Shown here one piece after another: positions 1 through 47,705 of a DNA stretch of 64,000 nucleotides. The notes beneath the pieces were generated by a model that was not told the DNA's origin, searched no databases, and was given only the letters and a program-made list of their open reading frames with translations. Within the stretch, counting starts at the first letter, position 1; each line of letters starts with the position of its first letter. The translations under genes and the position numbers were made by a program. The stretch is from Patescibacteria group bacterium (GTDB taxonomy: Bacteria > Patescibacteriota > Patescibacteriia > UBA10025 > JBIOWE01), in the NCBI GenBank assembly GCA_044868145.1, contig JBIOWE010000006.1:218835-282834 (forward strand). Direction: 5' to 3'.

Positions 1-23
1 TGTCGATCAATGCTAGCAGAACA

Positions 24-1394
24 ATGACTGTAACGTCTGCGGGCTCGCTGTCGTTGAGCGGCACGATCTCTGGTTCCGGCAAGTTAACGTATAAGCCGAG
101 CGCGTCGTTCCCAACCGGCGGCACGATTTCTTCCATTCTCCGCTTTGATTCGACTGACAATGACCAGACGATGGGCGCGCGGACCTACGGCGGCGCGGTG
201 GAGGTTTTCAACACTAGTGGTTCGAGTCGAACCGTGACCGCTGCTGCTGGGACGCTCGCATTCTCCTCGACCCTCGACATCTCCAAAACCGGCGGTGGCG
301 GTGAGACCCTCGAGCTGAACACGAACGACCCCACGACAACGATTAGCGGCGCAGTCACGATTGGTTCCGGCACAACGTTTTCCGCGAACAGCGCGAACGC
401 CTTGAACATCAACGGCAACTATACGAATAGTGGTACGTTCACGGATAATTCAGGCACAGTTACTGTTGCCGGCTCGGCCCAACAAACCTTCAACGCGACG
501 ATGACCGGCAGTTCAGACTTCAATAACCTGACCATCACCAATAACTCGGGTTCGGATCCGGTTACCAGCCCGTCGGTCATTTTCTCCGCTAGCGCCACGA
601 CCGCGGGGACGTTTACCGCCACAACGGCGAATGTCAAACTCCGCTTCTTTGCTGGCGGGACGTACACGTTCCAGAACATCAGTTTTAACGGTCAAGCTAC
701 GACGTCTCGCGTCGCCTTGCGAAGCTCATCGGCTGGGACGGACTGGAACTTGAACGTGGCGGGCACGCGTTCCGTGCTGAATACCGACGCGAAGGATTCG
801 GATGCGTGCGGCCAAGCCCCGAACATTGATGCAACGGATATTTCCACGCTCGATTCAACGGGCAACACCTGTTGGGATTTCAGCGCGACCCAGTTTAGCA
901 TCTCGGACACGACGATTGGGTTTGGCGCGATTACCGCGAGCACAGGTCGCTGGGCGACTGGTGATACGAACGGTACGGACGCCTCCGCCACGACCCCGAC
1001 CGCGGCACACACGATCAGCATACGGACGAGCGCAGGGAACGGCTACGCCCTGACGTATTTTGGCGCGACGCTTACAAGTAGCGGGAACACGATCTGCCAA
1101 ACCCCCCTCACAGACTGCGTGGACGCGACTGACGACTCGGATGGCGCACCTGGGACCGAGCAATTCGGGATTTCCGTGAGCACCGACGGGAATGCAACTA
1201 TTGCTGCCGGGTACCTCCGCGACAGCGCCGCCTCATTCAATTTCATTCCTTCAACGACCACGACGATCGTTTCGGAAACTGGCGCGACCGCCACAGAAAC
1301 GATCACCGCGAGCTACCTCGCGAACATCGCCGCCCTGACGGAACCGGGTGCCTACTTGACTAACATTACGTATATCTTGACGGCGACGTTTTGA
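24..1394 (+). CDS. Secreted Thr/Ser/Gly-rich surface protein, paralog A; probably 5'-truncated by the window edge
   Basis: No in-frame stop upstream of the ATG at 24 and no signal peptide on the first Met, so the gene likely starts before the window. The C-terminal ~170 aa are near-identical to the C-terminus of the 2304..3383 product (shared SDTTIGFG, TICQTPLTDC, GTEQFGISVST and TTTTIVSETG blocks). High-GC, Thr/Ala/Gly codon-rich. Confidence 0.6.
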   Translation: MTVTSAGSLSLSGTISGSGKLTYKPSASFPTGGTISSILRFDSTDNDQTMGARTYGGAVEVFNTSGSSRTVTAAAGTLAFSSTLDISKTGGGGETLELNTNDPTTTISGAVTIGSGTTFSANSANALNINGNYTNSGTFTDNSGTVTVAGSAQQTFNATMTGSSDFNNLTITNNSGSDPVTSPSVIFSASATTAGTFTATTANVKLRFFAGGTYTFQNISFNGQATTSRVALRSSSAGTDWNLNVAGTRSVLNTDAKDSDACGQAPNIDATDISTLDSTGNTCWDFSATQFSISDTTIGFGAITASTGRWATGDTNGTDASATTPTAAHTISIRTSAGNGYALTYFGATLTSSGNTICQTPLTDCVDATDDSDGAPGTEQFGISVSTDGNATIAAGYLRDSAASFNFIPSTTTTIVSETGATATETITASYLANIAALTEPGAYLTNITYILTATF

Positions 1395-1409
1395 TCCATT
1401 TTTTGCATA

Positions 1410-1517
1410 GGTGGCAAATCTTTTTGCCACCGGAACGGCTCACAAACAAGATTTTTGAGCTATGCGTTGAGAATAAATATTTAACGTTTTCGCGTAGATG
1501 CCAAATCTTGTTTGGCA
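1410..1517. repeat. Left REP-like palindromes: hairpin GGTGGCAAA/TTTGCCACC (1410-1431), AACAAGATTT motif (1445-1454), hairpin GATGCCAAA/TTTGGCATC (1495-1517)
   Basis: Perfect 9-bp stems read directly. The loops carry AAATCTT(G)TT, the reverse complement of the AACAAGATTT motif. Confidence 0.7.
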
Positions 1518-1529
1518 TCGAAAGGTTAA

Positions 1530-2018
1530 ATGATTATGGCTCGAACACGTTTGTCATTAGATGGTCAATTCCGTTACTTTGTCACCGTCTCAACGTCAGA
1601 TCGCAAAAAGATTTTTCAAAATAATACGATTAAGGATTTATGGATACAGAGTCTTGGTTATTGCCATAAAAAATTACATTTCTTTCTTTACGGATACGTA
1701 CTACTACTCGATCATTTTCATTTAATGTTAATGACAAAGGGTCATCGAAAAATTGAGGATGTGATGCGTCACGTGAACGGAGTTTTTGCGCAGCGTTACA
1801 ATAAGCTAGCTAACGAATATGGACAGGTGATCCAACGACGATTCTGGGACCACGCCATTCGGAATGAAAAAGATTTTATCGAGAAGCTCGATTATATGCA
1901 CAAAAATCCTTTAAATCACGGTTTGGTAGATGATGTTGAGGATTGGCCGTATTCGAGTTGGCATAATTATAATTGTAAGCATAAACCATTAATCGAAATA
2001 GATGCTATTGATCTCTAG
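1530..2018 (+). CDS. HuH-family Y1 transposase (IS200/IS605 TnpA or RAYT-like), 162 aa
   Basis: HFHLML matches the His-hydrophobic-His motif. The C-terminal region contains the putative catalytic Tyr near WPYSSWHNY. Size is typical of Y1 transposases. Flanking hairpins are present. Confidence 0.7.
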   Translation: MIMARTRLSLDGQFRYFVTVSTSDRKKIFQNNTIKDLWIQSLGYCHKKLHFFLYGYVLLLDHFHLMLMTKGHRKIEDVMRHVNGVFAQRYNKLANEYGQVIQRRFWDHAIRNEKDFIEKLDYMHKNPLNHGLVDDVEDWPYSSWHNYNCKHKPLIEIDAIDL

Positions 2019-2036
2019 GTCTTAATAGATGCTTGC

Positions 2037-2133
2037 GCTGATAAACAAGATTTATCAGCTACGCGACAGGAGGCATATTCTGTTTCATTTAAAACTCCTG
2101 CCCAAAAACAAGATTTGCCTGCCTGTCGACAGG
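2037..2133. repeat. Right REP-like palindromes: hairpin GCTGATAAA/TTTATCAGC (2037-2059) with an AACAAGATTT loop, a second AACAAGATTTG copy (2105-2117), and the 12-nt perfect palindrome CCTGTCGACAGG (2122-2133)
   Basis: Read directly. This is the fourth copy of the AACAAGATTT core within 700 bp. Confidence 0.7.
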
Positions 2134-2177
2134 TAGGTGAGCTACGCGGAGGCGGAGTTGAAAATTGATACAAATCG

Positions 2178-2206
2178 TTGACTGATTGGCAAAATCGTGC
2201 TATACT
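2178..2206 (+). promoter_or_regulatory. Sigma70-like promoter: TTGACT, 17-nt spacer, TATACT
   Basis: -35 at 2178-2183 and -10 at 2201-2206 with a 17-nt spacer, upstream of the 2304 gene. Confidence 0.5.
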
Positions 2207-2303
2207 ATATGCGTAACCTAACTAAAAAGGTCGGGCTGTGTATATCTGAAAAAATGCACAGCAAAACAAAAACAAACAATCATTAAAAGCTCAATAATTA
2301 TCC

Positions 2304-3383
2304 ATGAAAATTCATAAGATATTCTTCATAGTAATGGTTCTCATTACGGTTTTTGGGATTAGCTTCCCGATCCAGAACGCAAAGGCAGCTGCTTTAACAA
2401 GCGTGAAAGATGTGATGAATACGATTGCCGCGACCGCGAACGCGAACCATACGATATCGTTCGTTGCTCCGTCTGCGGTCTCGAACGGTTCTACCATCAC
2501 CTTGACCTTTCCCGCAGGTTTTAGCTTAACCGGTCTTGTCGAGGACGACATTGACATTGCGGGTACGACAGAAGGAGAACTAACCACAGCCGCTGATTGC
2601 ACGGGCAGCGAAAAAGCGAGCTTTAGCTTCTCTGGCCAAGTCATTACGTTCACGCTTTGTGCTGGTGACGGCGGTGACTTCACGGGATCGGAAACAATCA
2701 CCATCGAGATTGGCAATCACGCAAGTGCATCCGGAACAGGTTCCAACCAAATTGATAACCCTTCAGCCGGCGACTATCGTATCACCATCGGTGGTACCAT
2801 GACGGACTCCGGCGCGTTTGGTGTCTCAATCATTTCGGATGACAGCGTCAACGTGACCGCGCAGGTGAACGAGTCCATCACCTTCACGATTTCCGACACG
2901 ACAATCGGGTTTGGTACAATTACATCGAGTACAGGTCGCTGGGCGACTAGTGACACGACCGGTACTGATGCCTCGGCAACGACGCCGACATCCGCCCATA
3001 GCATGACCATCGCGACGAACGCCACAGGCGGTTACACGATCACGTACAACGGCGCGACGCTCACAAGCGGCGCGAACACCATTTGTCAAACACCGCTCAC
3101 AGACTGCGCGGACGTGACCGATGACTCGGATGGCAACCCCGGCACGGAGCAGTTTGGAATTTCCGTGAGCACGAGTGGGGACGCCACTATTCCTGCCGCG
3201 TATCTGCGAGATAGTGCCGCTTCCTTTGAATTCAAGCCTTCAACAACCACGACGATCGTCTCGGAGACTGGTCCCACAGCAACGGAGACAATCAGCACGT
3301 CCTATCTTGGCAATATCACCGGAACAACCGAAGCCGGCGCCTACTCGACGAACATCACGTACATCGCGACCGGCACGTTTTAA
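2304..3383 (+). CDS. Secreted Thr/Ser-rich surface protein, paralog B (359 aa), with N-terminal signal peptide
   Basis: Signal peptide MKIHKIFFIVMVLITVFGISFPIQNAKA. C-terminal module ~80% identical to that of the 24..1394 product. Confidence 0.7.
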   Translation: MKIHKIFFIVMVLITVFGISFPIQNAKAAALTSVKDVMNTIAATANANHTISFVAPSAVSNGSTITLTFPAGFSLTGLVEDDIDIAGTTEGELTTAADCTGSEKASFSFSGQVITFTLCAGDGGDFTGSETITIEIGNHASASGTGSNQIDNPSAGDYRITIGGTMTDSGAFGVSIISDDSVNVTAQVNESITFTISDTTIGFGTITSSTGRWATSDTTGTDASATTPTSAHSMTIATNATGGYTITYNGATLTSGANTICQTPLTDCADVTDDSDGNPGTEQFGISVSTSGDATIPAAYLRDSAASFEFKPSTTTTIVSETGPTATETISTSYLGNITGTTEAGAYSTNITYIATGTF

Positions 3384-3490
3384 GCCAGTCCGTAAGCCGA
3401 CAGCCAAACATCCTGACAGCCATCAGCCATTCAGCCTTTAAAGCTGAAAAGCGTTGCAGAATCTTCGTTTATGGATTTTAAAACAAAAAA

Positions 3491-4486
3491 ATGCCGACAA
3501 TAATGAGGAAATTAGGTGTTCTTACTGTCCTCACGATCGGCATTTTTTTTGTTGTCCAAAACGCCCAAGCTATCACCATTATCCCCCCCTCGTTCGAGTT
3601 TCAGGTAAAACCTGGCGAAACGATCAAGACAAAAATAAAGTTATTCAACGAGGAACAGCAGGCAAAACAACTTTATTCAGACGTTACGAATTTTACGGCC
3701 CAAGGGGAAACGGGAAATCCGCAGTTCGACCTGAAAGCTCAAAGAGTGGACTTAAGCGCTTGGATAGATGTTGGGCCCGGCCCATATCCGATGCAAGCCG
3801 GAGACAGGATTGAGGTGCCGATTACGATTAATGTGCCTAAAGATGCGGAACCGGGTGGGCATTATGCGGCTGTGTTCTTTACGACAAAACCACCAGACAC
3901 GGAAGAAAGCGGTTCTATTGGCATTGCATCAGCGATTGGGTCACTTTTCCTCGTGCGCGTTGAAGGCGAAATACGCGAACAAGGTTCTTTAATTGAATTT
4001 TCCGTGGCAGAAGGCAAAACGTTGTTTTCCCGTGCCCCGATCGACTTTTTTGTTCGCTTCAGTAACACCGGCAATGTCCATTTACGGCCGACCGGCACAC
4101 TTACAATTAAAAACATGTTTGGGGGAACAAGCGATACCATTGATGTGAACCCGGGCAAAGGGGCCACTTTACCAGGTCAAATTCGTAAATATGAAGTCAA
4201 ATGGGAGCGCGGGCAGGTTCAAGCCGGAACAGGTAGCGCATGGTCTGATTTTTGGAAAGAATTCAGCAATGAATGGAATAACTTTGCCATTGGCAAATAC
4301 ACAGCTTCCTTGGCTCTAACGTATGGAATCACTCCTGCGGGTAACGCTTCGGGAGAATTGGACTTCTGGGTCTTACCGTGGCATGTATTGTTGGTCTCTC
4401 TCTTCACCCTAGCGATTGTCGTGGTTTTGTTGATCTTCTTCATCAAGCGATATAACGCTTGGATAATTCGTAAAGCAAAGCAGTAA
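3491..4486 (+). CDS. Cell-surface protein with signal peptide and C-terminal TM anchor; DUF916/DUF3324 (CscA-like) architecture
   Basis: N-terminal signal peptide, a beta-rich ectodomain, and a single C-terminal TM helix (VLLVSLFTLAIVVVLLIFFI) followed by a basic tail. The architecture matches the membrane-anchored partner found in Gram-positive WxL/Csc surface clusters. Assigned by architecture only. Confidence 0.45.
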   Translation: MPTIMRKLGVLTVLTIGIFFVVQNAQAITIIPPSFEFQVKPGETIKTKIKLFNEEQQAKQLYSDVTNFTAQGETGNPQFDLKAQRVDLSAWIDVGPGPYPMQAGDRIEVPITINVPKDAEPGGHYAAVFFTTKPPDTEESGSIGIASAIGSLFLVRVEGEIREQGSLIEFSVAEGKTLFSRAPIDFFVRFSNTGNVHLRPTGTLTIKNMFGGTSDTIDVNPGKGATLPGQIRKYEVKWERGQVQAGTGSAWSDFWKEFSNEWNNFAIGKYTASLALTYGITPAGNASGELDFWVLPWHVLLVSLFTLAIVVVLLIFFIKRYNAWIIRKAKQ

Positions 4487-4500
4487 TTGATTGAGACATT

Positions 4501-5355
4501 GTGCGACTGATATCTCTTCGAGTTTACTTGATTTTAGTTCCCATGGTCATCGCAGGTATGGTCATGGGAAGTTCTTTAATTAGTGCGATTGACGTTTCTA
4601 TTTCCGCGGTTGTGTCTGGGACACCGCCTGAAGAGCCGGATACCGTTGTCGTTTTTAAAGGATATGCTTCGCCTGGTGCTTTAGTAACCATTCGGGAAGA
4701 CGGCACCGTGCTCGCGACAGTCACGGCGGGGCCGGATGCGCGGTTTGAAGTTTCAAAAATCATTAATCCGGGAATTTACACGTTCACCCTGTTTGCCACC
4801 GACATCCGAGGAGTCGTTAGTTCGACATTCAGCATAACGTTGAGCTTAAGCCAAGGAACGACAACCACCATTAGTGGCATCTTTCTTGGTTCTACAATTT
4901 CAACGGACAGATCTTCTTACAGCGTCGGAGATATCGTGTCCATTCTTGGCTCGACAGTTCCCCTCTCCACTGTGAGCGTTATTGTGCATTCACACCTTAC
5001 ACAGCAATTTAATGTGAATGCCGGTTCCGATGGTGTCTGGTTGAAACAGGTCTCTGCGGATGGACAATCCATCGAAGTCGGAAGCCATTCAACGTACTCG
5101 CAAGCCGTCGCGCCAGATAACTCCATTTCCGAATTAAGTAAGACCGTAAGCTTTGCCGTCGGCGCGGGAGGGTCGTGCGCAGGATACCTTGCCGCGGATA
5201 TTAATTGCGATGGGTTTGTTAACCTTATTGATTTCAGCATTATGCTGTTCTACTGGAATTCAAGGAACCCAGCGAATCCGCGTGCGGACATTAACGGCGA
5301 TGGACTCGTGTATATAGTTGACTTCAGTATTATGCTTTTCCATTGGACGGGGTAG
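4501..5355 (+). CDS. Secreted/anchored protein with Ig-like region and C-terminal dockerin domain (GTG start)
   Basis: Two tandem Ca-binding dockerin repeats at the C-terminus: DINCDGFVNLIDFSIMLFYW and DINGDGLVYIVDFSIMLFHW. N-terminal hydrophobic signal/anchor. Confidence 0.7.
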   Translation: MRLISLRVYLILVPMVIAGMVMGSSLISAIDVSISAVVSGTPPEEPDTVVVFKGYASPGALVTIREDGTVLATVTAGPDARFEVSKIINPGIYTFTLFATDIRGVVSSTFSITLSLSQGTTTTISGIFLGSTISTDRSSYSVGDIVSILGSTVPLSTVSVIVHSHLTQQFNVNAGSDGVWLKQVSADGQSIEVGSHSTYSQAVAPDNSISELSKTVSFAVGAGGSCAGYLAADINCDGFVNLIDFSIMLFYWNSRNPANPRADINGDGLVYIVDFSIMLFHWTG

Positions 5356-5388
5356 TGTAGCGACGGATGTCCTTGACACAGGGAGATG

Positions 5389-5450
5389 CTGAAACAAGTT
5401 CAGCATGACATGACTCTAGCCATCAAGTAGTCATTCTGAACTTGTTTCAG
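5389..5450. repeat. Long inverted repeat / stem-loop: CTGAAACAAGTTCAG (5389-5403) and its exact reverse complement CTGAACTTGTTTCAG (5436-5450)
   Basis: 15-nt arms in perfect reverse-complement orientation with further inner pairing (ATGACT/AGTCAT). The core GAAACAAGTT resembles the AACAAGATTT REP core near the Y1 transposase. Confidence 0.6.
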
Positions 5451-5487
5451 AATCCCCTTCAGATACTACGTAATCAAACCATAATCC

Positions 5488-6633
5488 ATGCTTCATCGCA
5501 CCACAACAATAAAAATACTGCTATACTTTTTCTTTACGATCGTTGGTGGAATAGTATCAGCCGCATCTCCCGCAGACGCTGCTATTTTGTACGTTAATCC
5601 TGCGGAACAGACTGTTGCATTGCGCGAAAGTTTTGTTGTTGATATTTTGCTGAACAGTGAAGGAGAAACTATTAATACGGTTCAGACGAGTATCAATTAC
5701 TCGCCTGATCTTCTTGAGATTCTTGACGTGTCGAAGGGAGGATCGTTCTTAACGCTTTGGCCGGAGGAGCCGCTTGTTAGTGCACCAACAGGAGTTGTCT
5801 CGTTGGTCGGAGGCATCCCGAACGGTAGCCTTGTGGTAGACGGACGCGTTGTACGTCTTTTTTTTCGGGCAAAGGCGCTCGGAACCTCTTCCATTCGTTT
5901 TGATGAAGACAACTCAGCTATTTACTTGAACGACGGAAAAGGCACGAAGACTGCTCTTTCCAGTCGTCAAGCATCGTATAAAGTAACAAACCCTTCCCCT
6001 TTTCTCGTGGAGATTACTTCTTCGACGCACCCGGACGAAAATATCTGGTATAATAAAGTGTCAGCCACGCTCACATGGCAGGTAAAAGAAGGCGCGCTGT
6101 ATAGTTATGCACTTGCCGAGAGCCCGCTTGATACTCCAGATGAAAAAATTGAGGACCAGGTGGGGAAAGTGACGTTTGATGATCTTGAAGATGGTATCCA
6201 TTATTTTATTTTGCGAGAAAAATTAGACGGCGATGAGTGGGGGCCTGTTTCCATGCGACGTATCATGGTTGACCGATCACCCCCGATCCAGTTTGAATAT
6301 GCATTTTCGAAAGATGATGCAGGAAAGTCCATTTTGATATTTTCCGCGAACGATAAATTCTCCGGCATTGACCGATACCAAATTACCGAAGGACGGAAAG
6401 GGTTAGCTACTGCTCAAAGCCCCTATACTCTCCTGGATCAATCGCGCAAGTCGGCCATTACGCTTCAAGCAGTTGATAGCGCTGGTAACATAAGCGAAAT
6501 TTCCATACCCGGCCTTGGCCGTTCGGAAACGAAGAAAGGTGTGGATCCCCTCGTATGGGTTGCGGTCTCGCTGGTCGCAATTGTCTCGTTCGTATCTTTA
6601 TTTCTTGTATCAAAAAGACGAAAGATCACTTAA
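5488..6633 (+). CDS. Membrane-anchored cohesin-like domain protein 1 (signal peptide, cohesin-like module, Ig-like domains, C-terminal TM)
   Basis: Residues ~30-150 fit the cohesin pattern (ILYVNPAEQTVALRESFVVDILLNSEGETINTVQTSINYSPDLLEILDVSKGGSF, cf. CipA cohesins). C-terminal TM WVAVSLVAIVSFVSLFLV followed by KRRK. Confidence 0.55.
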   Translation: MLHRTTTIKILLYFFFTIVGGIVSAASPADAAILYVNPAEQTVALRESFVVDILLNSEGETINTVQTSINYSPDLLEILDVSKGGSFLTLWPEEPLVSAPTGVVSLVGGIPNGSLVVDGRVVRLFFRAKALGTSSIRFDEDNSAIYLNDGKGTKTALSSRQASYKVTNPSPFLVEITSSTHPDENIWYNKVSATLTWQVKEGALYSYALAESPLDTPDEKIEDQVGKVTFDDLEDGIHYFILREKLDGDEWGPVSMRRIMVDRSPPIQFEYAFSKDDAGKSILIFSANDKFSGIDRYQITEGRKGLATAQSPYTLLDQSRKSAITLQAVDSAGNISEISIPGLGRSETKKGVDPLVWVAVSLVAIVSFVSLFLVSKRRKIT

Positions 6634-6634
6634 T

Positions 6635-7882
6635 ATGTGGATGACAAGAACGAAAATATTCTACTCTCTTGCCTTTGCTTTTCTACTGGTCGTCGTTGGG
6701 ATACCGCACGTTGTGCACGCGGCCGGTTCTTTTTTCCTTAGTCCGAACGTCGGATCGTATACGGTCGGTTCTACGATTACCGTTCGTCTTGTTGTCGGCA
6801 CAGGAGGTCAAGCGATCAATTCTGGACAGGCTACAATCACTTTTCCGACAAGCACCCTCGAGGCGCAAAGCGTTTCAAAATCAGGGTCTATTTTTACGCT
6901 CTGGCCAGAAGACCCACGTATTGTTGGCGACACAGTAACATTCGCTGGCGGATTACCAACCCCTGGCTACAACGGAAGCGGCGGCTTGATTATTACCGCG
7001 ACGTTTCGCGCGACGGCGACTGGTACTGCTACTGTACGTGTTACTTCAGGCCGATTGTTGTTGAACGATGGTTCAGGCACAAATATTCTCACTGGATTTG
7101 GTTCGGCAACCTATACCATTACGCCGGCCCCGCCAGCAAAAAACACGCCAGCAGCTCCAACCGTTTCTTCGAGTTCGCATTCAGATCAAAACCTCTGGTA
7201 TGCAAACTCAAACCCGACATTCGATTGGACGCACGGCGACGGTGTAACGGGATTCAGCTATTCCTTTGACGACCAGGAAGGCGCAATTCCCGATGAGGTA
7301 CAAGACAGCACCTTGCCGCAAGCATCCTATGCTGGGACAAAAGATGGATTCTGGTATTTCCATGTTCGAGCAAGAAATGACGACGGATGGGGAGCCACTG
7401 GCCACTTTACCGTTCGCATTGATACAACGGCGCCGCTTCCGTTCGAGATATTTGCTCTTCTGGATGAGGAACAATCTCAAGATGCCACTCGTCAGATAGC
7501 GTTTAAAACAACAGATGCCGTGTCTGGGCTGGACCATTATGATGTGTATGTGGACGGTTTACACATTGAGCAATTACAGCCGGCTGAAACAGTGCTCTAT
7601 ACGTTGCCGGACTTGCCGCAGGGAACACATACCATTCTCGTGCGAGCAGTTGACCGCGCCGGCAACAGAACCGACGCCTCAGTAAACGTTGGTGCTGCAC
7701 GTTCTTGCCCAAGGACAGGTTTCCAGATAGGTTCATTGTCCACGTGGTGTACCTGGATAGTGGTTTTTCAATGGCTTATAATTCTGCTGCTTATTTTGTT
7801 TATCCTCGCATTACTCAATCGGCGAAACAAGCAGGCTCCAACCACTCAAAATCGCAAGCATCAGCATCAGTCATCCAAATAA
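6635..7882 (+). CDS. Membrane-anchored cohesin-like domain protein 2 (paralog of 5488..6633)
   Basis: Starts at ATG 6635 (MWMTRTKIF...), immediately after the upstream stop. Same domain order as protein 1: a cohesin-like module (GSFFLSPNVGSYTVGSTITVRLVVGTGGQAINSGQATITF), shared downstream domains, and a C-terminal TM. Confidence 0.55.
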   Translation: MWMTRTKIFYSLAFAFLLVVVGIPHVVHAAGSFFLSPNVGSYTVGSTITVRLVVGTGGQAINSGQATITFPTSTLEAQSVSKSGSIFTLWPEDPRIVGDTVTFAGGLPTPGYNGSGGLIITATFRATATGTATVRVTSGRLLLNDGSGTNILTGFGSATYTITPAPPAKNTPAAPTVSSSSHSDQNLWYANSNPTFDWTHGDGVTGFSYSFDDQEGAIPDEVQDSTLPQASYAGTKDGFWYFHVRARNDDGWGATGHFTVRIDTTAPLPFEIFALLDEEQSQDATRQIAFKTTDAVSGLDHYDVYVDGLHIEQLQPAETVLYTLPDLPQGTHTILVRAVDRAGNRTDASVNVGAARSCPRTGFQIGSLSTWCTWIVVFQWLIILLLILFILALLNRRNKQAPTTQNRKHQHQSSK

Positions 7883-24506: not shown

Positions 24507-25946
24507 CTAGTCATGCACAATGACGGTTGTGCCGACGCTTGCCCATTCATACAGTTTTTTTGAGTCGGCAAGCGATTGTCGCACGCACCCGTGCGAAACG
24601 CGAACGCCAAGGTGGTTTTCTCCCTCGTAGATCCTGCCGCCGGCAATTTTCCAATATGGCAGGGAGTGGATGCCATAGGCGCCATTACCGGCAAACGCCA
24701 TCCAATAGTCCATGTATAAGCTGTACGGTTTTGAATACGCGACAAGAATTTTATTGGTTGTTTTGAATGTCCCAAGCGGGGTGGGCATGCTCCACTTGCC
24801 AGTTGAAATACGGTGCTCGCCGATTTTCTGTCCATTTTCATAGTAGCGCAACATCTGCTCGGAAATATCAATATCAATGTATTTGGCTAGATCTTGTCTC
24901 CCTTCGGCAATTCGGCGTGTCGGTCCGACGATTAAGGTGTTATCGCCCGTACCAAAATCAGCTTCGGCTATGGAAACACCGCCGCGGAACTCTCTTTCAT
25001 AAGCGAAAAAGTTCATTGCGAGAGGTGTACCGTCAATTTCAAAGCTCCGTACGTGCGGCGCGCCTGTTTGACCCGCGGCCGCGACAATTTCGTCAAAGCC
25101 ATCATTGTCCACGTCGGCGCCAGTAACGGTTGCGCCTCCTGTAAATTGAGTTGGAAAGGCAGTAAACTGTCCGAGTACCTGGTTGGTTGAGAGTTTTATG
25201 ACTTTGATCCACGCGCTATCATAGCGGGCAACGGAGAAAATAAGTTCATCGTCGGGTCCGCCGTCAACATTTGCCGCGGCAAGGTTCACGCCGCCCTTGA
25301 AATCTTGATGGAATACGTAAAAGTCTTTGTTGAGGGATTGGCCAAAACGGTTAAAAACGCGAATATGCGGACCACCGCCTGCACCTGGCGCGGTAATAAT
25401 TTCTGGCAGGCCTGACCCATCAATGTCCGCAACGGCGACGTTGACGCCACCGCGAAATGTCGTGTCATACGCGAAAAATCCTGGGGTAAACACTGGTGTA
25501 CCGTATCGGTCAAAAATGCGCACCTGCGGTGCAGCCCCAAACTTTGTGCCGGTCACAATTTCCGCTTGTCCGTCTCCGTCCAGATCGCCGCAAGCAACAG
25601 TAACGCCGGCCCGCATCTTTTGGTCATATGCAAAAAAACCTGGGGTGAACACGGTTGCACCATCATGATTGAATATCCTAACCTGTGGACCGCCGCCCGG
25701 ACCAGCTCCCGTAATAATCTCGTCTATACCATCGCCGTCTAAATCGCAGGCCGTAACTGATGCACCGCCTCGGAAGATTTCCGGGTACGCAAGAAACGCG
25801 TGCTCCACAGTTCCACTAGTTGCGTCAATGATCTTTACCTCCGGCTCGCGCGTGTCCCCTGCGAGCGCCATTTTTGGTAACAAAAAAAGTATTGCGCTTA
25901 CAAAAGCCAATACTCCTAATGCTTCGAATACTTCCCTTTTGCTCAT
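24507..25946 (-). CDS. Secreted FG-GAP (integrin-alpha-like) beta-propeller repeat protein fused to a C-terminal L,D-transpeptidase (YkuD) domain
   Basis: Signal peptide. Six or more repeats of DxDGDGxxE/FG-GAP type (CDLDGDGIDEIITG, CGDLDGDGQAEIVTG, ADIDGSGLPEIITA, ...). C-terminal catalytic motif VRVSHGCVRQ, typical of YkuD L,D-transpeptidases. Confidence 0.75.
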   Translation of the reverse strand: MSKREVFEALGVLAFVSAILFLLPKMALAGDTREPEVKIIDATSGTVEHAFLAYPEIFRGGASVTACDLDGDGIDEIITGAGPGGGPQVRIFNHDGATVFTPGFFAYDQKMRAGVTVACGDLDGDGQAEIVTGTKFGAAPQVRIFDRYGTPVFTPGFFAYDTTFRGGVNVAVADIDGSGLPEIITAPGAGGGPHIRVFNRFGQSLNKDFYVFHQDFKGGVNLAAANVDGGPDDELIFSVARYDSAWIKVIKLSTNQVLGQFTAFPTQFTGGATVTGADVDNDGFDEIVAAAGQTGAPHVRSFEIDGTPLAMNFFAYEREFRGGVSIAEADFGTGDNTLIVGPTRRIAEGRQDLAKYIDIDISEQMLRYYENGQKIGEHRISTGKWSMPTPLGTFKTTNKILVAYSKPYSLYMDYWMAFAGNGAYGIHSLPYWKIAGGRIYEGENHLGVRVSHGCVRQSLADSKKLYEWASVGTTVIVHD

Positions 25947-39213: not shown

Positions 39214-39573
39214 TTAGGAAAAAATAAGAAGGAGGACGAGTGAGGCGAGCAATATTATCTCTAGTATCGTCGTAATATAGAAATAAGAGCGACGGATGAC
39301 GTTCGATGGCTTGCCGAGAAAATGTGCGGCAACAACATTAGCGAGGAGGAGAATTGTTCCGATACCCGGTATCAAAAATATCTGGTACCAATTGCCGATT
39401 AAGTCGATTCCAAAGTAAATGTTATAATGGAGTGGAATAAGGTCGTTTGATGGCCGGGCATGGATAACGGCAAGAGCCCATGTAACAGCGTTGATCGTTA
39501 CACTCGCTATAATGTTCCAAACGATATTCTTGTCTAAAAATAACGCGCGTAACCCTTCAAAAAAATGTTTCAT
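39214..39573 (-). CDS. Small 3-TM membrane protein of unknown function, immediately upstream of mraY
   Basis: 119 aa with three hydrophobic helices. Its ATG overlaps the divergent GT39 ATG (ATGTTTCAT). Confidence 0.4.
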   Translation of the reverse strand: MKHFFEGLRALFLDKNIVWNIIASVTINAVTWALAVIHARPSNDLIPLHYNIYFGIDLIGNWYQIFLIPGIGTILLLANVVAAHFLGKPSNVIRRSYFYITTILEIILLASLVLLLIFS

Positions 39574-41325
39574 TTCAGGCGATTAATTGAGCAGCATTGG
39601 AAAATCGTTGTTGCTGGCATACTTATAATAATGTTTGTGCTTGAATTGACGACTGCGGTTGGCGAATCGCAAACGGTAGACGAAGGCGTCCATCTATCTG
39701 CGGGGTACAGTTATTTCAAGACTCGCGATTTCAGGATGAACCCCGAGCACCCCCCGTTCGCCAAGTTGGTCGCAGCTTTACCGTTGTTGTTTTTGGATTT
39801 GAAGGACGTCCGTTCTTTTTCTGGCTGGCAAGAGGTAGATGAATGGAAGTTCGCTCACCAATTTCTTTATGGAAACACTGAAAGGGCAGATACAATATTA
39901 CTCCTAGGACGGCTATCGGGAATGGTCATGAGTCTGATTCTGGGGCTTGTTTTGTTTCTTTGGGCTAAGGAAATATTTGGTGTACTCGTGGCTTTCTTTG
40001 CGTTGTTCCTCTATGCTTTTGACCCGAACATGATTGCCCATAGTCGATATGTGACCACGGATGCGCCGCTTGCACTTTTTTTTGTTTTAACAATGTACTT
40101 ATTCATGCGGTTCATTCGGAATCCGAGCGCAACAGGGTTTCTTGCATTTGCGCTTTCTTTTGCGCTCGCGCAAGCAACGAAGTTTTCTGCACTCATTCTC
40201 GTGCCCACTCTTATTATTCTCTTTCTTGTACTGTCACTTCGGTACCCAAAGCTGCGTTCATTGAAACAGTTTACCATACATTTCGCGATTCTTGCCGCTA
40301 TAACGTTTTTGGTACTTTTTGGATTATACAGTTTTGAGGTGAAGCAACCAATAACTGACTACCGCGTGCAAGAGCTTCTCATAAAGCGGGAATTGATTGT
40401 GCAAAGTGGTGCTGAAGCATCGTACTCCGCGTCGCTCCAGAATGTTATTCGTCTGTCAGATCCAGGAACAAGCTCGGGCCGAAGATTTTTATCTTCGCTG
40501 CAATGGCATATTCCTTCGTACTCATACATTCGCGGTTTTATTCAGCTGGCAAGCCATAACGCAGGTGGCCACACTTCATATCTTTTTGGGCATTCATCAG
40601 ATTTCGGTTGGTGGTACTATTTCCCTTTGGCAATGCTGGTCAAAACTCCGGTGAGTTTTTTACTGTTTCTTTTGGTTTCAGCCGTCGCTCTATTCATGTC
40701 AACGGTAAAAAAACATTTTGAGGTTCTTTGGATCCTTGCGCCATTCATCATTGGGTCAGGAGTTTATCTTCTTGTCAGCATGACCTCGCATCTTAACCTG
40801 GGAGTCCGGCACGTCTTACCAATATATCCATTACTTTACATCATTGCGGCGCATGTAACTGTTTCGTTTGTCCAGAAAAGGCCGCTACCCGTGTTCCGGA
40901 TTTCCATTGCTGCGTTGCTTCTTTTCTACCTTTTCTCCTCACTTAGTATTTTTCCTCACTATCTTGCCTACTTTAATGAAATTGCAGGCGGGCCAGCGGG
41001 TGGTACTCGTTATTTACTCGATTCAAACATAGATTGGGGGCAAGACGTGAAAAAACTTCACGCCTACTTGCAAAAACATTCAATTCCCTTCGTTTGCATG
41101 GCCTATTTTGGTCAAGCATCGCTTGACTATTACGGTATTGATTACCGATACATTCCAAAAAATGCTGAAGTTGTTTCTAATGATCTCAACTGCGTCTACG
41201 TGGTAAGTGCTACGCTGCTTTTTCCTCATGACAGTGATTACGCATGGCTCCGTCAATATACCCCAACAGAGAAAATCGGATACTCTTTATACCTCTATGA
41301 TTTTCGAAAGAACGCACTAGACTAA
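39565..41325 (+). CDS. GT-C fold glycosyltransferase, family 39/PMT-like (dolichyl/undecaprenyl-phosphate-sugar dependent)
   Basis: 11+ TM helices. The first extracytoplasmic loop carries the DE motif (SQTVDEGVHLSAGYSYF). Large C-terminal soluble domain. Confidence 0.7.
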   Translation: MFHFRRLIEQHWKIVVAGILIIMFVLELTTAVGESQTVDEGVHLSAGYSYFKTRDFRMNPEHPPFAKLVAALPLLFLDLKDVRSFSGWQEVDEWKFAHQFLYGNTERADTILLLGRLSGMVMSLILGLVLFLWAKEIFGVLVAFFALFLYAFDPNMIAHSRYVTTDAPLALFFVLTMYLFMRFIRNPSATGFLAFALSFALAQATKFSALILVPTLIILFLVLSLRYPKLRSLKQFTIHFAILAAITFLVLFGLYSFEVKQPITDYRVQELLIKRELIVQSGAEASYSASLQNVIRLSDPGTSSGRRFLSSLQWHIPSYSYIRGFIQLASHNAGGHTSYLFGHSSDFGWWYYFPLAMLVKTPVSFLLFLLVSAVALFMSTVKKHFEVLWILAPFIIGSGVYLLVSMTSHLNLGVRHVLPIYPLLYIIAAHVTVSFVQKRPLPVFRISIAALLLFYLFSSLSIFPHYLAYFNEIAGGPAGGTRYLLDSNIDWGQDVKKLHAYLQKHSIPFVCMAYFGQASLDYYGIDYRYIPKNAEVVSNDLNCVYVVSATLLFPHDSDYAWLRQYTPTEKIGYSLYLYDFRKNALD

Positions 41326-41398: not shown

Positions 41399-43129
41399 AT
41401 GGAAGACCCAAAAAAGCTCAAACAGGTGATCAAGGACGCTAAGTTAGTCGCCGCCGATCAGCTGGACAAAGTTTTTCTCGACTCTCAAAAACAAAAACAA
41501 GACTTCATTACATATCTGTTTGCGAAAAATCTCATTCCAGAAGTTTCTCTCTATGAGACACTTGCCAATTATTACCACGTACCCTTTATAGATCTGAGAG
41601 GTCAAACGATACGAAAGGATATCTTAACGTTAATCCCCGAGCCCATAGTACAAACGCAACAAGTCGTCGCATTTGACCGCGATGAACGTGAGCTCAAAGT
41701 TGGAGTGTTGGATCCACACAACCTCCAACTTTTTGATTTTGTTAAAAAGAAAACCGGCGTACCCTTGAAGGTCTACCTCACAACACCCTCGAGTATTAAG
41801 GAAGTCATCACGCAATATCACAAGGGTATGTCTGCGGAGTTTAAGAAAATTACCGAAGAAAAAGTCGGCCAGGCTGTGATGGATGAAAAAGATTTAAAAG
41901 AGTTGGCACAGGATCTGCCTATCGTAAGGATCGTCGATTCAATCCTTGAGTATGCAATTTTCGAAAATGCTTCTGACATTCATATCGAGCCAACAGACAA
42001 GGATTTATTAGTTCGCTATCGTATTGACGGCGTTTTACGCGATGTCATGGATTTACCTAAGTCAACGCAACCCGGGCTCACTGCGCGCATTAAGATCCTT
42101 GCACACCTGAAGATAGATGAGCATCGCATTCCCCAGGATGGACGTATTAAAATAACAACCTCCGATTACAAAATTTCCTTTCGGGTGTCGACAATCCCTG
42201 TGTATGACGGTGAAAAGATTGTTTTGCGCCTACTCAACGAATCTGCGAAACCATTGACGCTGGAACAAGTTGGTTTACAGCTCGGGGCTCTTACGCGCGT
42301 TGAGCGGAGCATTAAAAAACCACAAGGAATCATTTTTATTACTGGGCCAACAGGATCAGGCAAAACCACTACCCTCTACACCGTCCTGAACATATTGAAT
42401 GTCCCGGAGGTAAACATTGTAACGATAGAAGACCCCATTGAATATCGAATGCCGCGGGTGAATCAGAGTCAGGTCAATCCACGCATTGGGTATACTTTTG
42501 CGAATGGACTGCGCTCGTTGCTACGACAAGATCCAAACATTATTATGGTCGGAGAGATCCGGGATAATGAAACAGCAGAAATCGCCATTCACTCCGCCAT
42601 GACAGGACATTTAGTTTTGACGTCACTGCACACCAATGATGCCGTGACAACCCTTCCTCGATTAGAGGAAATGGGCATTCCTCCTTTTTTGATCGTTGCG
42701 ACGACGAATGTGGTAGCCGCCCAGCGTCTCGTGCGAAAGATATGCTTGCATTGCATTCAAAGCTACACATTAACAAAAAAAGCCATTGATGACTTACGTA
42801 AGGAATTTGACCTTGATTCCATTTTGTCTGTTTTGGAAAAACAAGGCGTCATTCTTTCCGCAAAAACACCGCTGGAATCACTATTGTTTTACAGGGGCAA
42901 AGGTTGTAAACAGTGCAGTAACAGCGGCTACAAGGGTCGAATCGGGATCTTTGAGGTATTGGAGATAACAAAATCAATGGCTCAACTCATTCTTGAGAGA
43001 GCCAGCGCAGCGCAAATGAAAGAGCTTGCGGTGAAGGAAGGAATGCTCACGATGCTCCAGGATGGCTTTATTAAAGCAAAAAATGGGATAACAACCATCG
43101 AAGAGGTGTTACGCGTGACGAAAGAATAA
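41399..43129 (+). CDS. pilB: Type IV pilus assembly ATPase PilB (GspE family)
   Basis: Walker A GPTGSGKTTTL, Asp box and His box, and a C-terminal tetracysteine CLHC...CKQC. Confidence 0.9.
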   Translation: MEDPKKLKQVIKDAKLVAADQLDKVFLDSQKQKQDFITYLFAKNLIPEVSLYETLANYYHVPFIDLRGQTIRKDILTLIPEPIVQTQQVVAFDRDERELKVGVLDPHNLQLFDFVKKKTGVPLKVYLTTPSSIKEVITQYHKGMSAEFKKITEEKVGQAVMDEKDLKELAQDLPIVRIVDSILEYAIFENASDIHIEPTDKDLLVRYRIDGVLRDVMDLPKSTQPGLTARIKILAHLKIDEHRIPQDGRIKITTSDYKISFRVSTIPVYDGEKIVLRLLNESAKPLTLEQVGLQLGALTRVERSIKKPQGIIFITGPTGSGKTTTLYTVLNILNVPEVNIVTIEDPIEYRMPRVNQSQVNPRIGYTFANGLRSLLRQDPNIIMVGEIRDNETAEIAIHSAMTGHLVLTSLHTNDAVTTLPRLEEMGIPPFLIVATTNVVAAQRLVRKICLHCIQSYTLTKKAIDDLRKEFDLDSILSVLEKQGVILSAKTPLESLLFYRGKGCKQCSNSGYKGRIGIFEVLEITKSMAQLILERASAAQMKELAVKEGMLTMLQDGFIKAKNGITTIEEVLRVTKE

Positions 43130-43136
43130 GAATTGT

Positions 43137-44354
43137 ATGCCTGAATTTTTTTACACCGCGAGAACAGCGGAAGGTAAATTGAAGAGGGATCGTATAAACA
43201 TGAAGGATGAGCAGTCTTTGGCGAACTATTTACGGACCCAGGGCTACATTTTGACTTCGGCAAAACCAGCCGCAGAAGCACAAGAAGGGTTCCTGAAAAA
43301 ATTTCTTGGAGGTCTGAGTGGCGTTTCGGTAGTCGAAAAAATATTTTTCACGCAAAATCTCGAGGTTATGTTGCGTACGGGTTTCTCTCTGGCTGCCGCG
43401 CTCAAGACAATCGGCGACCAAACGGAAAACAAGCGCATGAAGCAAGTGATTATCAACCTTCAACAAGACGTTGAAAATGGAATAGCATTCTCAACAGCCC
43501 TCGGACGACACCCGCGCATTTTTGGAGAATTGTTTGTCAATATGGTTGCTGCGGGAGAAGCTAGCGGAAAACTTGATGAAGTGTTAAAGAGACTGACTGA
43601 CCAGATGCGGAAAGATCATGCTCTTATCGCGAAAGTTCGTTCCGCTCTTACATACCCCGCCATCGTTATTTTCGCAATGATTGTCATTGGGATAGTCATG
43701 ATGACATTCGTCATTCCGAAGCTTTTGGAAATTTTTGCTGATGCGCAGGTGCAGCTCCCGCTTCCCACACGAATCCTCATTTGGATGACACATGTGTTAA
43801 CAAGCTACGGTATTTTTCTTCTTTTCGGTGTACTGGTCATTGCCTTCGTTTTGTACCGCTTTAAAAAAACATACCGCGGAAAACGCTTCTTTCACCTGGT
43901 AATGCTAAAAATGCCGATCGCCTCAAAGATTATCAAAAACATCAACATAGCTCGTTTTACAAGAACATTAAGCTCGCTCTTAAAAACGGATATTCCAATC
44001 GTACAAACCTTTCAGATTATTTCAAAAACATTAGGCAACGTATATTATTCGGCGGCGGTTATGGAGACCTCCGAGCAAGTAAAAAAAGGAATAAGCATCA
44101 TGAAATCGCTTGAGACAAAAAGAGAGCTTTTCCCCCCAATTGTCACACAGATGATTTCCGTTGGAGAAGAAAGCGGCAGTCTTGATACAATCTCAGAGGA
44201 AATCGCAAAATTTTACGAAGAAGCTGTTGACCAAACAATGCAGAACCTGTCAACAATCATCGAACCCGTCCTTGTTCTTTTCCTTGGCGCTGCTGTAGCT
44301 GGTTTGGCGCTTGCGGTTATCCTGCCAATCTATTCCCTCTCGGAAGCAATATGA
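43137..44354 (+). CDS. pilC: Type IV pilus platform protein PilC (GspF family)
   Basis: Duplicated T2SSF domains and 3 TM helices. Confidence 0.9.
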   Translation: MPEFFYTARTAEGKLKRDRINMKDEQSLANYLRTQGYILTSAKPAAEAQEGFLKKFLGGLSGVSVVEKIFFTQNLEVMLRTGFSLAAALKTIGDQTENKRMKQVIINLQQDVENGIAFSTALGRHPRIFGELFVNMVAAGEASGKLDEVLKRLTDQMRKDHALIAKVRSALTYPAIVIFAMIVIGIVMMTFVIPKLLEIFADAQVQLPLPTRILIWMTHVLTSYGIFLLFGVLVIAFVLYRFKKTYRGKRFFHLVMLKMPIASKIIKNINIARFTRTLSSLLKTDIPIVQTFQIISKTLGNVYYSAAVMETSEQVKKGISIMKSLETKRELFPPIVTQMISVGEESGSLDTISEEIAKFYEEAVDQTMQNLSTIIEPVLVLFLGAAVAGLALAVILPIYSLSEAI

Positions 44355-45322
44355 TCAAGCGCAGCAAAAAAACTCACGCTTTTGGCCTTTTTGAATCTGT
44401 TATTGCCATTGGCATTGTCGGTCTTTTTATAGTCCTTTTTGGTTCAAGCTTTACCTTTATATCCTTTGAACAGTATATTCGCGATCGCGCCCGGGCAATG
44501 GAGCTTGCGCAGCAGGAAGTAGAAGCGATCCGCAATAGTTCCTTTTCGAAACTATCAACGTGGACAGATACACATTTCCTTGGTGTCGCATTTAACAAAG
44601 GCTTATGGGCTGTACAAAACTCTGGAAGCGCGGTAAGCAGCCCAAACGTTTATACCCTTGGGAAGCCGTCCCCTGTTGCTTCTGGGGTAACAGGTATTGC
44701 CATAGTGCCTGGAGGAGACTATACGAATTTTACCTTTGAAACGTCCATAAAGGCGCTCGCTGATTCACAGGCAGGTTTTGGCACGGGGGTCGTTTTTCGT
44801 TATATTGACCATCGCAATTATTACAAGGCGTGGTTCACGGCTTCTACGCTCGTCTTCAGCAAGGTCGTCGATGGCGTTGAAGCAGTGCTCTATACGGAGA
44901 ATCCACGAACGTTTAATACTGATCAATGGTATAAACTGAAAGTGGTGACGAACGGCTCTTCGATCGAGCTGTGGGTTGATGATGTTCAAAGGACCACCCA
45001 AGTGGACTTGAGTTTTGCAAAGGGAAAATTAGCCCTGCTTGGCCTTGATTCAGCGCATCCTCAGTTTGACAACGTAACCGTTACTACTACATCTTCGACA
45101 ACGTGGAACTTAGACGCAGACACAGTTAACATTGTGGCAAACGGGTGGGAGCGGTTTGGCATACAAGATTTGCCAGGCGGTAACGACGTTCTGATCGTGC
45201 AAGACGCTGTAGGAGGTTTCACCGACTTAAAAAAAGTTACCGCTCGCGTTGAGTGGCAACAACGCAGTCAAACGCGGTCGATTGAATTGATTACCTACGT
45301 ACATGAACATAATGTACAGTAA
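44351..45322 (+). CDS. Pilin-like protein with atypical class-III signal and a C-terminal lectin/LamG-like (DUF1080-like) jelly-roll domain
   Basis: N-terminus KKTHAFGLFESVIAIGIVGLF (Glu at +5 if cleaved after Ala). The C-terminal ~200 aa are a beta-sandwich (FRYIDHRNYYKAWF...ELWVDDV). Confidence 0.5.
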   Translation: MIKRSKKTHAFGLFESVIAIGIVGLFIVLFGSSFTFISFEQYIRDRARAMELAQQEVEAIRNSSFSKLSTWTDTHFLGVAFNKGLWAVQNSGSAVSSPNVYTLGKPSPVASGVTGIAIVPGGDYTNFTFETSIKALADSQAGFGTGVVFRYIDHRNYYKAWFTASTLVFSKVVDGVEAVLYTENPRTFNTDQWYKLKVVTNGSSIELWVDDVQRTTQVDLSFAKGKLALLGLDSAHPQFDNVTVTTTSSTTWNLDADTVNIVANGWERFGIQDLPGGNDVLIVQDAVGGFTDLKKVTARVEWQQRSQTRSIELITYVHEHNVQ

Positions 45323-45881: not shown

Positions 45882-45882
45882 T

Positions 45883-47703: not shown

Positions 47704-47705
47704 TC

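Follow-up and report, generated by a model that had tools for sequence, protein, structure and literature searches.

A probable Pam-type pilus operon with a giant candidate tip adhesin and dockerin and cohesin genes in a Parcubacteria-group Patescibacterium

The first 7,882 nucleotides of a 64-kb stretch of contig JBIOWE010000006.1 from a Patescibacteria group bacterium (the whole stretch is referred to here as the window) encode a series of secreted and membrane-anchored proteins, two of which end in the same C-terminal module. Together with 7.6 kb of upstream sequence, window positions 1-7882 probably represent one operon for a Pam-type pilus in a Parcubacteria-group Patescibacterium related to Kerfeldbacteria. 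Pilus assembly in this organism is likewise likely to be chaperone-assisted and usher-less, and to proceed by donor-strand exchange. The features on which this proposal draws are listed below in window coordinates.

1..1394, + strand: 3' end of a giant gene, comprising the last 463 codons and the stop codon of a 2,546-aa secreted protein, the proposed tip adhesin.
894..1391, + strand: C-terminal module of the giant protein, assigned as a Pam pilin C-terminal (acceptor) domain; it follows a giant-specific junction and has no donor linker.
2304..3383, + strand: putative major pilin of 359 aa, with a signal peptide (residues 1-29), an N-terminal beta-sandwich (30-177), a linker (178-191) and a C-terminal acceptor domain (192-359).
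2835..2876, + strand: proposed donor strand, the linker SDDSVNVTAQVNES (pilin residues 178-191), a coil in the AlphaFold2 monomer model.
2883..3380, + strand: C-terminal module of the pilin, assigned as a Pam pilin C-terminal domain.
3491..4486, + strand: putative chaperone, with a signal peptide, two immunoglobulin (Ig)-like beta-sandwich domains, a disordered loop (132-148) and a C-terminal transmembrane helix (297-330).
4501..5355, + strand: proposed terminator or adaptor, with a signal peptide, the mature N-terminus 'IDVSISAVV', two Ig (Big_6-like) domains and a type I dockerin.
5488..6633, + strand: cohesin protein 1, with a signal peptide, a cohesin, an Ig- or fibronectin type III (FnIII)-like domain and a C-terminal transmembrane helix (segment 351-377).
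6635..7882, + strand: cohesin protein 2, a paralogue of the preceding protein (26% identity), with a signal peptide, a cohesin-like domain, a Big_13-like Ig domain and a C-terminal transmembrane helix.

The open reading frame (ORF) at 24..1394 had originally been read as the gene of a 456-aa paralogue of the pilin. The ORF listing and its translation revealed that this frame is open back to base 3 of the window, and a public contig (L001), 100% identical to the window over an overlap of 13,383 nt with 0 mismatches and reaching 7.7 kb further left, showed it to be a fragment. The full giant gene spans L001:1451..9091 and encodes a 2,546-aa product with an N-terminal signal peptide, of which the window holds the last 463 residues only. 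The signal peptide is followed by an MG2-like Ig domain (matched at E 1.6e-6), two repeats of ~390 aa that are up to 74% identical to each other, three beta-helix-like repeats of ~220-270 aa and the Pam C-terminal domain. Judged from this domain layout, the N-terminal 2,300 residues would fit an adhesin. Contrary to what had been supposed, the giant and pilin genes are also not in direct tandem, the transposase gene 1530..2018 lying between them.

The original prediction, made by a model from the letters of the DNA, had described a C-terminal module of ~170 aa, ~80% identical between the two products, and the comparison bore this out. By BLASTP, 894..1391 and 2883..3380 (both + strand) encode 166 aligned residues, of which 128 are identical (77%, 0 gaps, E 2e-80); the module is the extreme C-terminus of both proteins, and no other significant segment connects the giant end with the pilin. 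At the DNA level the modules are 74% identical, with 86% identity at codon positions 1 and 2 and 49% at position 3. The dN/dS comparison that had been suggested for the pair gave 0.12 by the Nei-Gojobori method (dN 0.157, dS 1.27). Taken together, the third-position identity, the dS and the dN/dS mark the repeat as genuine, as old and as strongly constrained by purifying selection. Right outside the module, both upstream and downstream, identity per 30-nt block falls to 13-40%, which is the random level. The identity ends exactly at 'F[ST]ISD' because the giant proteins carry their own conserved junction there, 'IDA[ST]DGTNFDATNNxCW'.

Amongst the sampled genomes, the giant's module is nearest to the pilin of its own genome in three, at 77% (L001, the window genome), 73% (L004) and 70% (L035), against 66% or less to the modules of other giants; this closeness fails in L010 (53%) and L017 (40%). 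The pattern appears to indicate old, episodic homogenisation or co-evolution, as one would expect of two domains that have to receive the same linker and work with the same chaperone. Purifying selection and past homogenisation within the genome may thus have kept the two modules at 77% identity, so that both subunits could accept one strand and bind one chaperone. The own-genome closeness in three genomes, and the transposase element that lies between the two genes, could also point to a recent duplication or conversion tract of no special function, perhaps promoted by that transposase, as the origin of the module. Any conversion would have to be old at the observed dS and third-position identity, the dN/dS denotes strong constraint, and the giant-plus-pilin design is found in many genomes that have no such transposase; this explanation is therefore very improbable, and recent gene conversion in particular was rejected on the dS.

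The identity of the module was provided by a curated model. NCBIfam NF058581 (CPR_Pam_pilin_C; release 20, cutoff 55 bits) matched the giant at 60.8 bits and the pilin at 69.4 bits, covering model positions 8 or 9 to 148 of 148, and it matched 44/44 sampled homologues of the 359-aa pilin. By this sequence assignment the common module is a Pam pilin C-terminal domain, in Pam pilins the acceptor of a donated strand, and not the cell-wall-binding domain that had been considered. A Pfam scan of the giant end and the pilin returned nothing credible; sub-threshold matches to Inhibitor_I42, PqqF_C_3, Pro_Al_protease and others were ignored. Searching the whole library by phmmer with the giant's module yielded 350 cluster representatives (E up to 1e-3), in which the module always lies at the extreme C-terminus of proteins of about 200 to 2,852 aa. 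No ORF other than the giant and the pilin bears this C-terminal domain (CTD) in the 64-kb window.

The system to which this domain belongs was described very recently in Ca. Mycosynbacter amalyticus, two filaments of which were solved by cryo-electron microscopy (cryo-EM) in a 2026 preprint (bioRxiv 10.64898/2026.03.03.709456). The Pam pilins, PamA and PamB, consist of a beta-sandwich N-terminal domain (NTD), a single linker strand and a truncated Ig-like CTD; the linker of one subunit completes the CTD of its neighbour, and the linker and the CTD groove are the most conserved regions (10.64898/2026.03.03.709456). Two PapD/FimC-like chaperones with C-terminal transmembrane helices (PamC and PamD) accompany them, PamT, which has a CTD only, is the proposed tip, and the RbmA-like PamR, which combines an N-terminal strand and two FnIII domains with a transmembrane helix, is the proposed terminator and anchor (10.64898/2026.03.03.709456). 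The preprint mentions neither giant proteins, nor cohesins and dockerins, nor a link to WxL or DUF916 proteins (10.64898/2026.03.03.709456).

An AlphaFold2 model of the pilin, built with 44 homologues, reproduced the same architecture at a mean predicted local distance difference test (pLDDT) score of 91.8, with a signal helix, two beta domains and a coil at residues 178-191. The pLDDT of about 95 over residues 230-359 indicates with confidence that the module is a folded beta domain. The simple low-complexity repeat that had been named as the alternative was rejected on this model and on the dN/dS, even with a composition that is, as had been noted, rich in Thr (15.8%) and Ser (10%). Full-length orthologues of the pilin at 45-62% identity are common in Patescibacteria metagenomes. 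Neither a sortase pilus nor membership of the MSCRAMMs (microbial surface components recognizing adhesive matrix molecules) was retained as an identity for it, LPXTG being absent.

Directly before the first strand of the CTD, the pilin family carries the near-invariant consensus DDSVxVTATVDPS, in which D179, D180, V182 and V188 are invariant or nearly so amongst 44 pilins. Using a position-specific scoring matrix (PSSM), this linker motif was found directly upstream of the CTD in 36/62 pilins, with scores of 11-48, and it was not found in the giants or in 10 PamT-like proteins (at most 0.1 in the latter). From its conservation and its predicted coil, and by analogy with Pam, we take the linker SDDSVNVTAQVNES to be the strand that is donated.

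The giant presents the complementary picture. About 19 loci have an ORF of >2,000 aa upstream of the pilin, and in 16 of these BLASTP reaches the C-terminus of the window giant. Upstream of its module, the window giant scores -12.6 with the linker PSSM, and 13/13 large module proteins score at most 1.8 (median -8.6). A protein with an acceptor domain and without a donor strand bears the hallmark of a tip subunit, as do PamT, FimH and PapG, and by this analogy the giant is probably the tip adhesin.

The gene at 3491..4486 encodes, as had been predicted, a protein with a signal peptide and a single C-terminal transmembrane helix. Its AlphaFold2 model (42 homologues, pLDDT 90.3) consists of a signal helix, two beta-sandwich domains and the transmembrane helix at 297-330. 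A Foldseek search of the Protein Data Bank (PDB) with this model returned the WxLIP protein of E. faecium as the best match (9i25_C, E 5.7e-11; also 9i1y), followed by the chaperone-usher chaperones CfaA, CsuC and Caf1M at target-normalised TM-scores of 0.50-0.58. No published description of the 9i25 structures was found. At the sequence level, Pfam PF06030 (WxLIP_PGBD, formerly DUF916; cutoff 27.3 bits) gave the window protein a sub-threshold score of 15.9 bits (E 0.014; profile positions 18-119 of 121) and matched 13/42 homologues at E up to 0.01 (best 1.5e-7); DUF3324 was matched by neither the chaperone nor any of the 42 homologues. The proposal that this protein would resemble DUF916 and DUF3324 received real but weak support for the former, through a sub-threshold match and a WxLIP as the top fold, and none for the latter, and we regard the DUF916 relationship as remote and probably genuine. 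A profile of the chaperone family found no WxLIP amongst PDB sequences, and PDB-sequence searches with the pilin, the chaperone, the family profiles and a DUF916-positive homologue gave nothing meaningful, the Pam cryo-EM chains apparently not being among those sequences. Only two homologues touched an NCBIfam fimbrial chaperone model (E 0.012). In function, the protein fits the description of PamC and PamD, to which it can be likened by that description and by predicted fold only.

The loop at chaperone residues 132-148 (window 3884-3934) is the only low-confidence stretch of the model and precedes an alternating-hydrophobic strand, IGIASAIGSLFLVRV. Its position is that of the WxLIP hairpin which becomes ordered on WxL binding, and also that of the F1-G1 loop and G1 donor strand of chaperone-usher chaperones.

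The resemblance to WxLIP bears on the Gram-positive Csc/WxL-type complex that had been proposed for these genes, in which the module would bind the cell wall or an anchored partner non-polymerically and the DUF916-like protein would hold single subunits, with no fibre being formed. A WxL cluster comprises small WxL proteins, large WxL proteins with N-terminal binding domains, and a WxLIP of DUF916-DUF3324-transmembrane layout, which by prediction supplies a strand that completes the WxL sandwich (PMC10599100). The gene logic is thus the same as here, with small and large subunits that have a common C-terminal domain, variable N-termini on the large ones, and an adjoining partner with signal peptide, two Ig domains and transmembrane helix; moreover, the anchored protein of the window is remotely related to DUF916, and the PDB chain closest to it is a WxLIP in complex with a long WxL protein. 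WxL proteins themselves are described as bound to peptidoglycan and not as fibre subunits, and the description of WxLIP never uses the word chaperone (PMC10599100). Several observations argue against such a complex. The Pfam WxL domain was found neither in the giant end and pilin at E up to 1 nor in the 44 homologues at E up to 0.1, no W-x-L motif occurs in the pilin or in the giant's module, DUF3324 is absent, and no operon protein contains LPxTG. The module scores above the cutoff of the Pam pilin model, all hosts are Patescibacteria and not Firmicutes, and an invariant linker between the pilin domains that is lacking in the giant and in PamT-like proteins is difficult to explain without strand donation between subunits. 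A Csc/WxL-type complex is thus unlikely, and the evidence remains more consistent with a Pam-type pilus.

Conservation of the locus was examined by own ORF calling and hidden Markov models in a scan of one genome per species, which yielded 406 stretches encoding chaperone relatives, of which the best 78 loci were analysed. Amongst these, the chaperone gene is directly preceded by 1-3 genes ending in the module in every locus with enough flank. Related genomes keep a seven-gene order of giant, pilin(s), chaperone(s), dockerin protein and two cohesin/transmembrane proteins. Named relatives are Kerfeldbacteria (a member of the Parcubacteria group), Uhrbacteria and 'Patescibacteria group', and all named homologues are Patescibacteria. 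About half of the loci contain a second chaperone paralogue of ~305 aa, which recalls the PamC/PamD pair. In more distant loci, several of them labelled Saccharibacteria, ~235-aa proteins are encoded beside chaperone relatives. These proteins align with the PamT model over its full length at 150-191 bits and score 125-156 bits with the pilin C-domain model, which ties the chaperone family to the Pam system.

Between genomes, the copy number ranges from 1 to 3 for the pilin and from 1 to 2 for the chaperone, the window genome having the minimal set. In some relatives a second pilin-plus-chaperone pair follows the cohesin genes (L008:14477-16626, L012:8844-10990 and L013:7038-9181).

Downstream of the chaperone, the product of 4501..5355 was matched by Dockerin_1 (PF00404) at 27.6 bits (cutoff 22.9) and by Big_6 at E 1.1e-5. 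The cohesin family (PF00963) matched the 5488..6633 product below its cutoff of 24.1, at 17.7 bits and E 0.0042, and matched 15/24 members of that protein's family (best 9.2e-8). In 37 loci, a homologue of 4501..5355 starts 1-30 nt after the chaperone gene, and in the same 37 loci homologues of 5488..6633 and then 6635..7882 follow. Transmembrane anchors in the operon are confined to the chaperone and the two cohesin proteins. These genes complete the surface-structure island that had been foreseen, in which variable secreted subunits ending in the same module are combined with a partner of two domains anchored in the membrane, and with dockerin and cohesin genes downstream.

The mature N-terminus of the dockerin protein provided an indication of how this trio could be connected to the pilin. 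Its family has the N-terminal pattern V-[ST]-[IV]-[ST]-A-x-V, the same V-x-V/I-x-A-x-V pattern as in the pilin linker. In most homologues the best match of the linker PSSM falls at residues 27-36, just past the signal peptide, and in 19/37 homologues it exceeds the 99th percentile of 3,193 background ORFs. Because the dockerin protein has a linker-like strand at its mature N-terminus and lacks an acceptor domain, it is probably, by analogy, a donor-only last subunit, and its dockerin would fix the fibre to the two membrane cohesins. In the literature consulted, no description of cohesin-dockerin use at a pilus base was found.

Four longer dockerin homologues (437-458 aa; L024:10988-12322, L031:10977-12290, L038:11003-12379 and L045:1745-3091) carry an N-terminal region that is colinear with the pilin NTD and then strong linkers, e.g. 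TTNDQVLVTATV and VTDDQITVIAQV, with PSSM scores of 9-16.5. With a divergent NTD, linker, Ig and dockerin, they resemble a pilin in which the acceptor domain has been swapped for a dockerin.

Dockerin/cohesin pairs are common in Patescibacteria, and the trio could alternatively form the core of a cellulosome-like display, to which the giant, the pilin-like protein and the two-Ig protein would be incidental as independent adhesins or S-layer-like proteins. The dockerin above its Pfam cutoff, the cohesin matches at family level and the transmembrane anchors of both cohesin proteins are consistent with display. The position of the dockerin gene, which in all 37 loci follows the chaperone gene within 1-30 nt and always comes after pilin genes, speaks against it, as do the pilin-linker-like N-terminus of the dockerin protein and the long variants that look like pilin NTD-linker fusions. 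Additionally, the operon encodes no glycoside hydrolases or other dockerin-bearing cargo. Cellulosome-like display is thus distinctly unlikely, and we favour a role of the trio at the base of the pilus.

For the Pam-type pilus as a whole, the following sequence of events is proposed. All parts would be exported by Sec, and the membrane-anchored chaperone would cap the open C-terminal domain of each subunit. The giant, having an acceptor and no donor linker, would start the fibre and end up at its tip as an adhesin of 2,300 residues, following the logic of FimH and PapG and the role assigned to PamT in Mycosynbacter. Pilins would then join at the base, the linker strand 'DDSVxVTATV' of each entering the C-terminal domain of the previous subunit. 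Finally, the linker-like strand of the dockerin protein would terminate growth and its dockerin would dock on the two cohesin proteins, fixing the fibre to the membrane in the role assigned to PamR in Mycosynbacter. The tip, terminator and cohesin-dockerin anchoring roles are suggested by the presence and absence of motifs and by synteny.

With the Pam system of Mycosynbacter, the locus shares the C-terminal pilin domain by curated model, a pilin with signal peptide, beta-sandwich NTD and conserved linker, a CTD with paired cysteines, a Sec-exported two-Ig chaperone with a C-terminal transmembrane helix encoded in the operon (likened here at fold level only), the lack of usher and sortase, and the restriction to bacteria of the Candidate Phyla Radiation (CPR). 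The testable Pam features are present, namely the pilin C-domain model, the pilin layout, an anchored chaperone at fold level and a CPR host. It differs in that the relatives of the host are Kerfeldbacteria and Uhrbacteria and not Saccharimonadia or Microgenomatia, in that the window has one pilin type and one chaperone (relatives have 1-3 and 1-2, respectively), and in that no ATP synthase genes occur among the called genes of the window locus. There is also no PamT, the 2,546-aa protein bearing the linker-less acceptor domain instead; the PamT model NF058579 (cutoff 240 bits) gave partial 23-bit matches only, by way of the common CTD. An RbmA-like PamR is likewise missing, and a dockerin protein and two transmembrane-anchored cohesin proteins are fixed in the operon. 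No single operon protein has the PamR layout, the strand and two Ig domains being on the dockerin protein and the transmembrane helix on the cohesin proteins. The giant acceptor-only protein and the operon-fixed dockerin/cohesin trio are additions to the Pam system.

The comparison with chaperone-usher pili (Fim/Pap, CFA/I, Csu and Caf1) follows similar lines. As in those, an incomplete Ig-like subunit would be completed by a donated strand with the help of a two-domain chaperone (by fold matches to CfaA, CsuC and Caf1M), a terminator subunit would be used, and the tip adhesin would have two parts, a binding region and a pilin domain that lacks the donor strand (FimH and PapG are built in this way). 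Here, both the usher and the outer membrane are missing, the chaperone is anchored in the membrane, the subunits have two domains, and the donor strand would be an internal linker, whereas in chaperone-usher pili it is an N-terminal extension; no usher or PapD-family Pfam match was found in the seven operon proteins. From the WxL/Csc clusters of Firmicutes, the locus is also set apart by its invariant inter-domain linker, the proposed donor strand. As in cohesin-dockerin anchoring of cellulosome scaffoldins, by cohesins anchored through SLH domains or transmembrane helices, a secreted type I dockerin protein is encoded next to membrane-anchored cohesins, but no enzymes are displayed and the dockerin protein appears to be a pilus base subunit.

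A number of observations weigh against this interpretation. Polymerisation is predicted here from genes, by homology to the Mycosynbacter Pam pilins at the level of a domain model only; the NF058581 scores lie just 6-14 bits above the cutoff, and neither a PamT-like nor an RbmA-like protein is encoded in the window. Foldseek with the whole pilin model returned only generic two-Ig matches to MSCRAMMs and integrins at TM-scores of 0.2-0.29. For the chaperone the TM-scores are moderate (0.43-0.58), the functionally unrelated two-Ig proteins RbmA and CEP192 also score (with lower TM-scores), no NCBIfam model matches it, and no Pam chaperone model was matched amongst its 42 homologues. The motif of the dockerin protein is short, 18/37 homologues falling within the 99th percentile of the background, and the pilin-NTD similarity of its long variants is weak (11 bits). 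In addition, the transposase insertion may keep the giant gene from being transcribed together with the other operon genes.

A more far-reaching claim combines these elements into an undescribed three-part Pam machine of Parcubacteria-group Patescibacteria, comprising a linker-less tip adhesin of 2,000-2,900 residues, a homopolymeric shaft, and a base subunit that acts as a donor only and whose dockerin plugs it non-covalently into membrane cohesins, with a chaperone homologous to WxLIP/DUF916. As a joint claim this is tentative, and it is doubtful that every part of it will hold. If true, Firmicute WxL clusters and CPR Pam pili would be two branches of one ancient donor-strand system, usher-less and with a membrane-anchored chaperone, of bacteria without an outer membrane.

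CPR bacteria account for a large part of bacterial diversity and spend their lives attached to other cells; the ways in which they find and hold their hosts are poorly understood. The locus would place the Pam system, identified only in 2026 in one cultivated Saccharibacterium, in a different and uncultivated lineage, and points to a possible host-binding part in the form of a giant modular adhesin fused to a pilin acceptor domain. It also suggests a dockerin-cohesin plug as a way of anchoring a pilus without usher, sortase or outer membrane. The remote WxLIP/DUF916 link would tie Pam to widespread, poorly understood clusters of lactobacilli, enterococci and Listeria, and raises the idea that WxL proteins use strand complementation likewise.

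A different operon variant is found in Uhrbacteria-type loci (L042, L044, L046, L051, L052, L054, L058, L064, L066, L067, L069, L071, L075 and L079). In these, an ORF of about 1,100-1,300 aa starts about 10-110 nt after the chaperone gene and matches the profile of the pilin N-terminal domain, not the C-terminal module, and the dockerin/cohesin genes are absent. The titles of L002, L006, L016, L019, L055, L063 and others read 'uncultured Gammaproteobacteria', 'Pirellulales', 'Methylomirabilis' or 'Bdellovibrionales'; on contigs with this CPR-type operon, such non-CPR titles are probably placeholder names or binning errors.

The interval between the giant and pilin genes holds the remaining features of the locus.

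1438..2128, + strand: inserted REPtron, with the gene of a REP-associated tyrosine transposase (RAYT) at 1530..2018 and four palindromic repeats around it that resemble repetitive extragenic palindromic (REP) elements.
1444-1466, 1491-1513 (- strand), 2043-2065 and 2106-2128: the REP-like repeats, with the core AAACAAGATTT.
2178..2206, + strand: promoter candidate upstream of the pilin gene, a sigma-70-like TTGACT-17-TATACT with TG, identified by consensus match only (10/12 positions).

The 1530..2018 product was identified as a RAYT by NCBIfam NF047646 (E 3.5e-34) and Pfam Y1_Tnp (E 1.2e-7). The four REP-like repeats compare with 0.05 expected matches, and none occurs elsewhere in the window. 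In two other genomes (L008:6996-7520 and L013:463-1023), the chaperones of which are only ~50% identical, a RAYT homologue likewise sits between these two genes, and this recurrent position suggests an old insertion or a preferred target.

Across the 64 kb of the window, ARAGORN found no tRNA gene and no Rfam family reached its gathering score; ribosomal-protein, cell-wall and pilus operons are nevertheless present. A secreted protein with FG-GAP repeats and a YkuD-type L,D-transpeptidase domain is encoded at 24507-25946 (- strand). Positions 41399-50174 hold a complete-looking type IV pilus cluster with a T2SSE/PilB-like ATPase, T2SSF/PilC, PilM, PilN, PilO and a prepilin-like protein with an N-methylation motif; a PMT-family glycosyltransferase gene (39565-41325) lies directly upstream of the cluster. 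With this cluster in the same window, the organism would encode two unrelated pilus systems within 40 kb.

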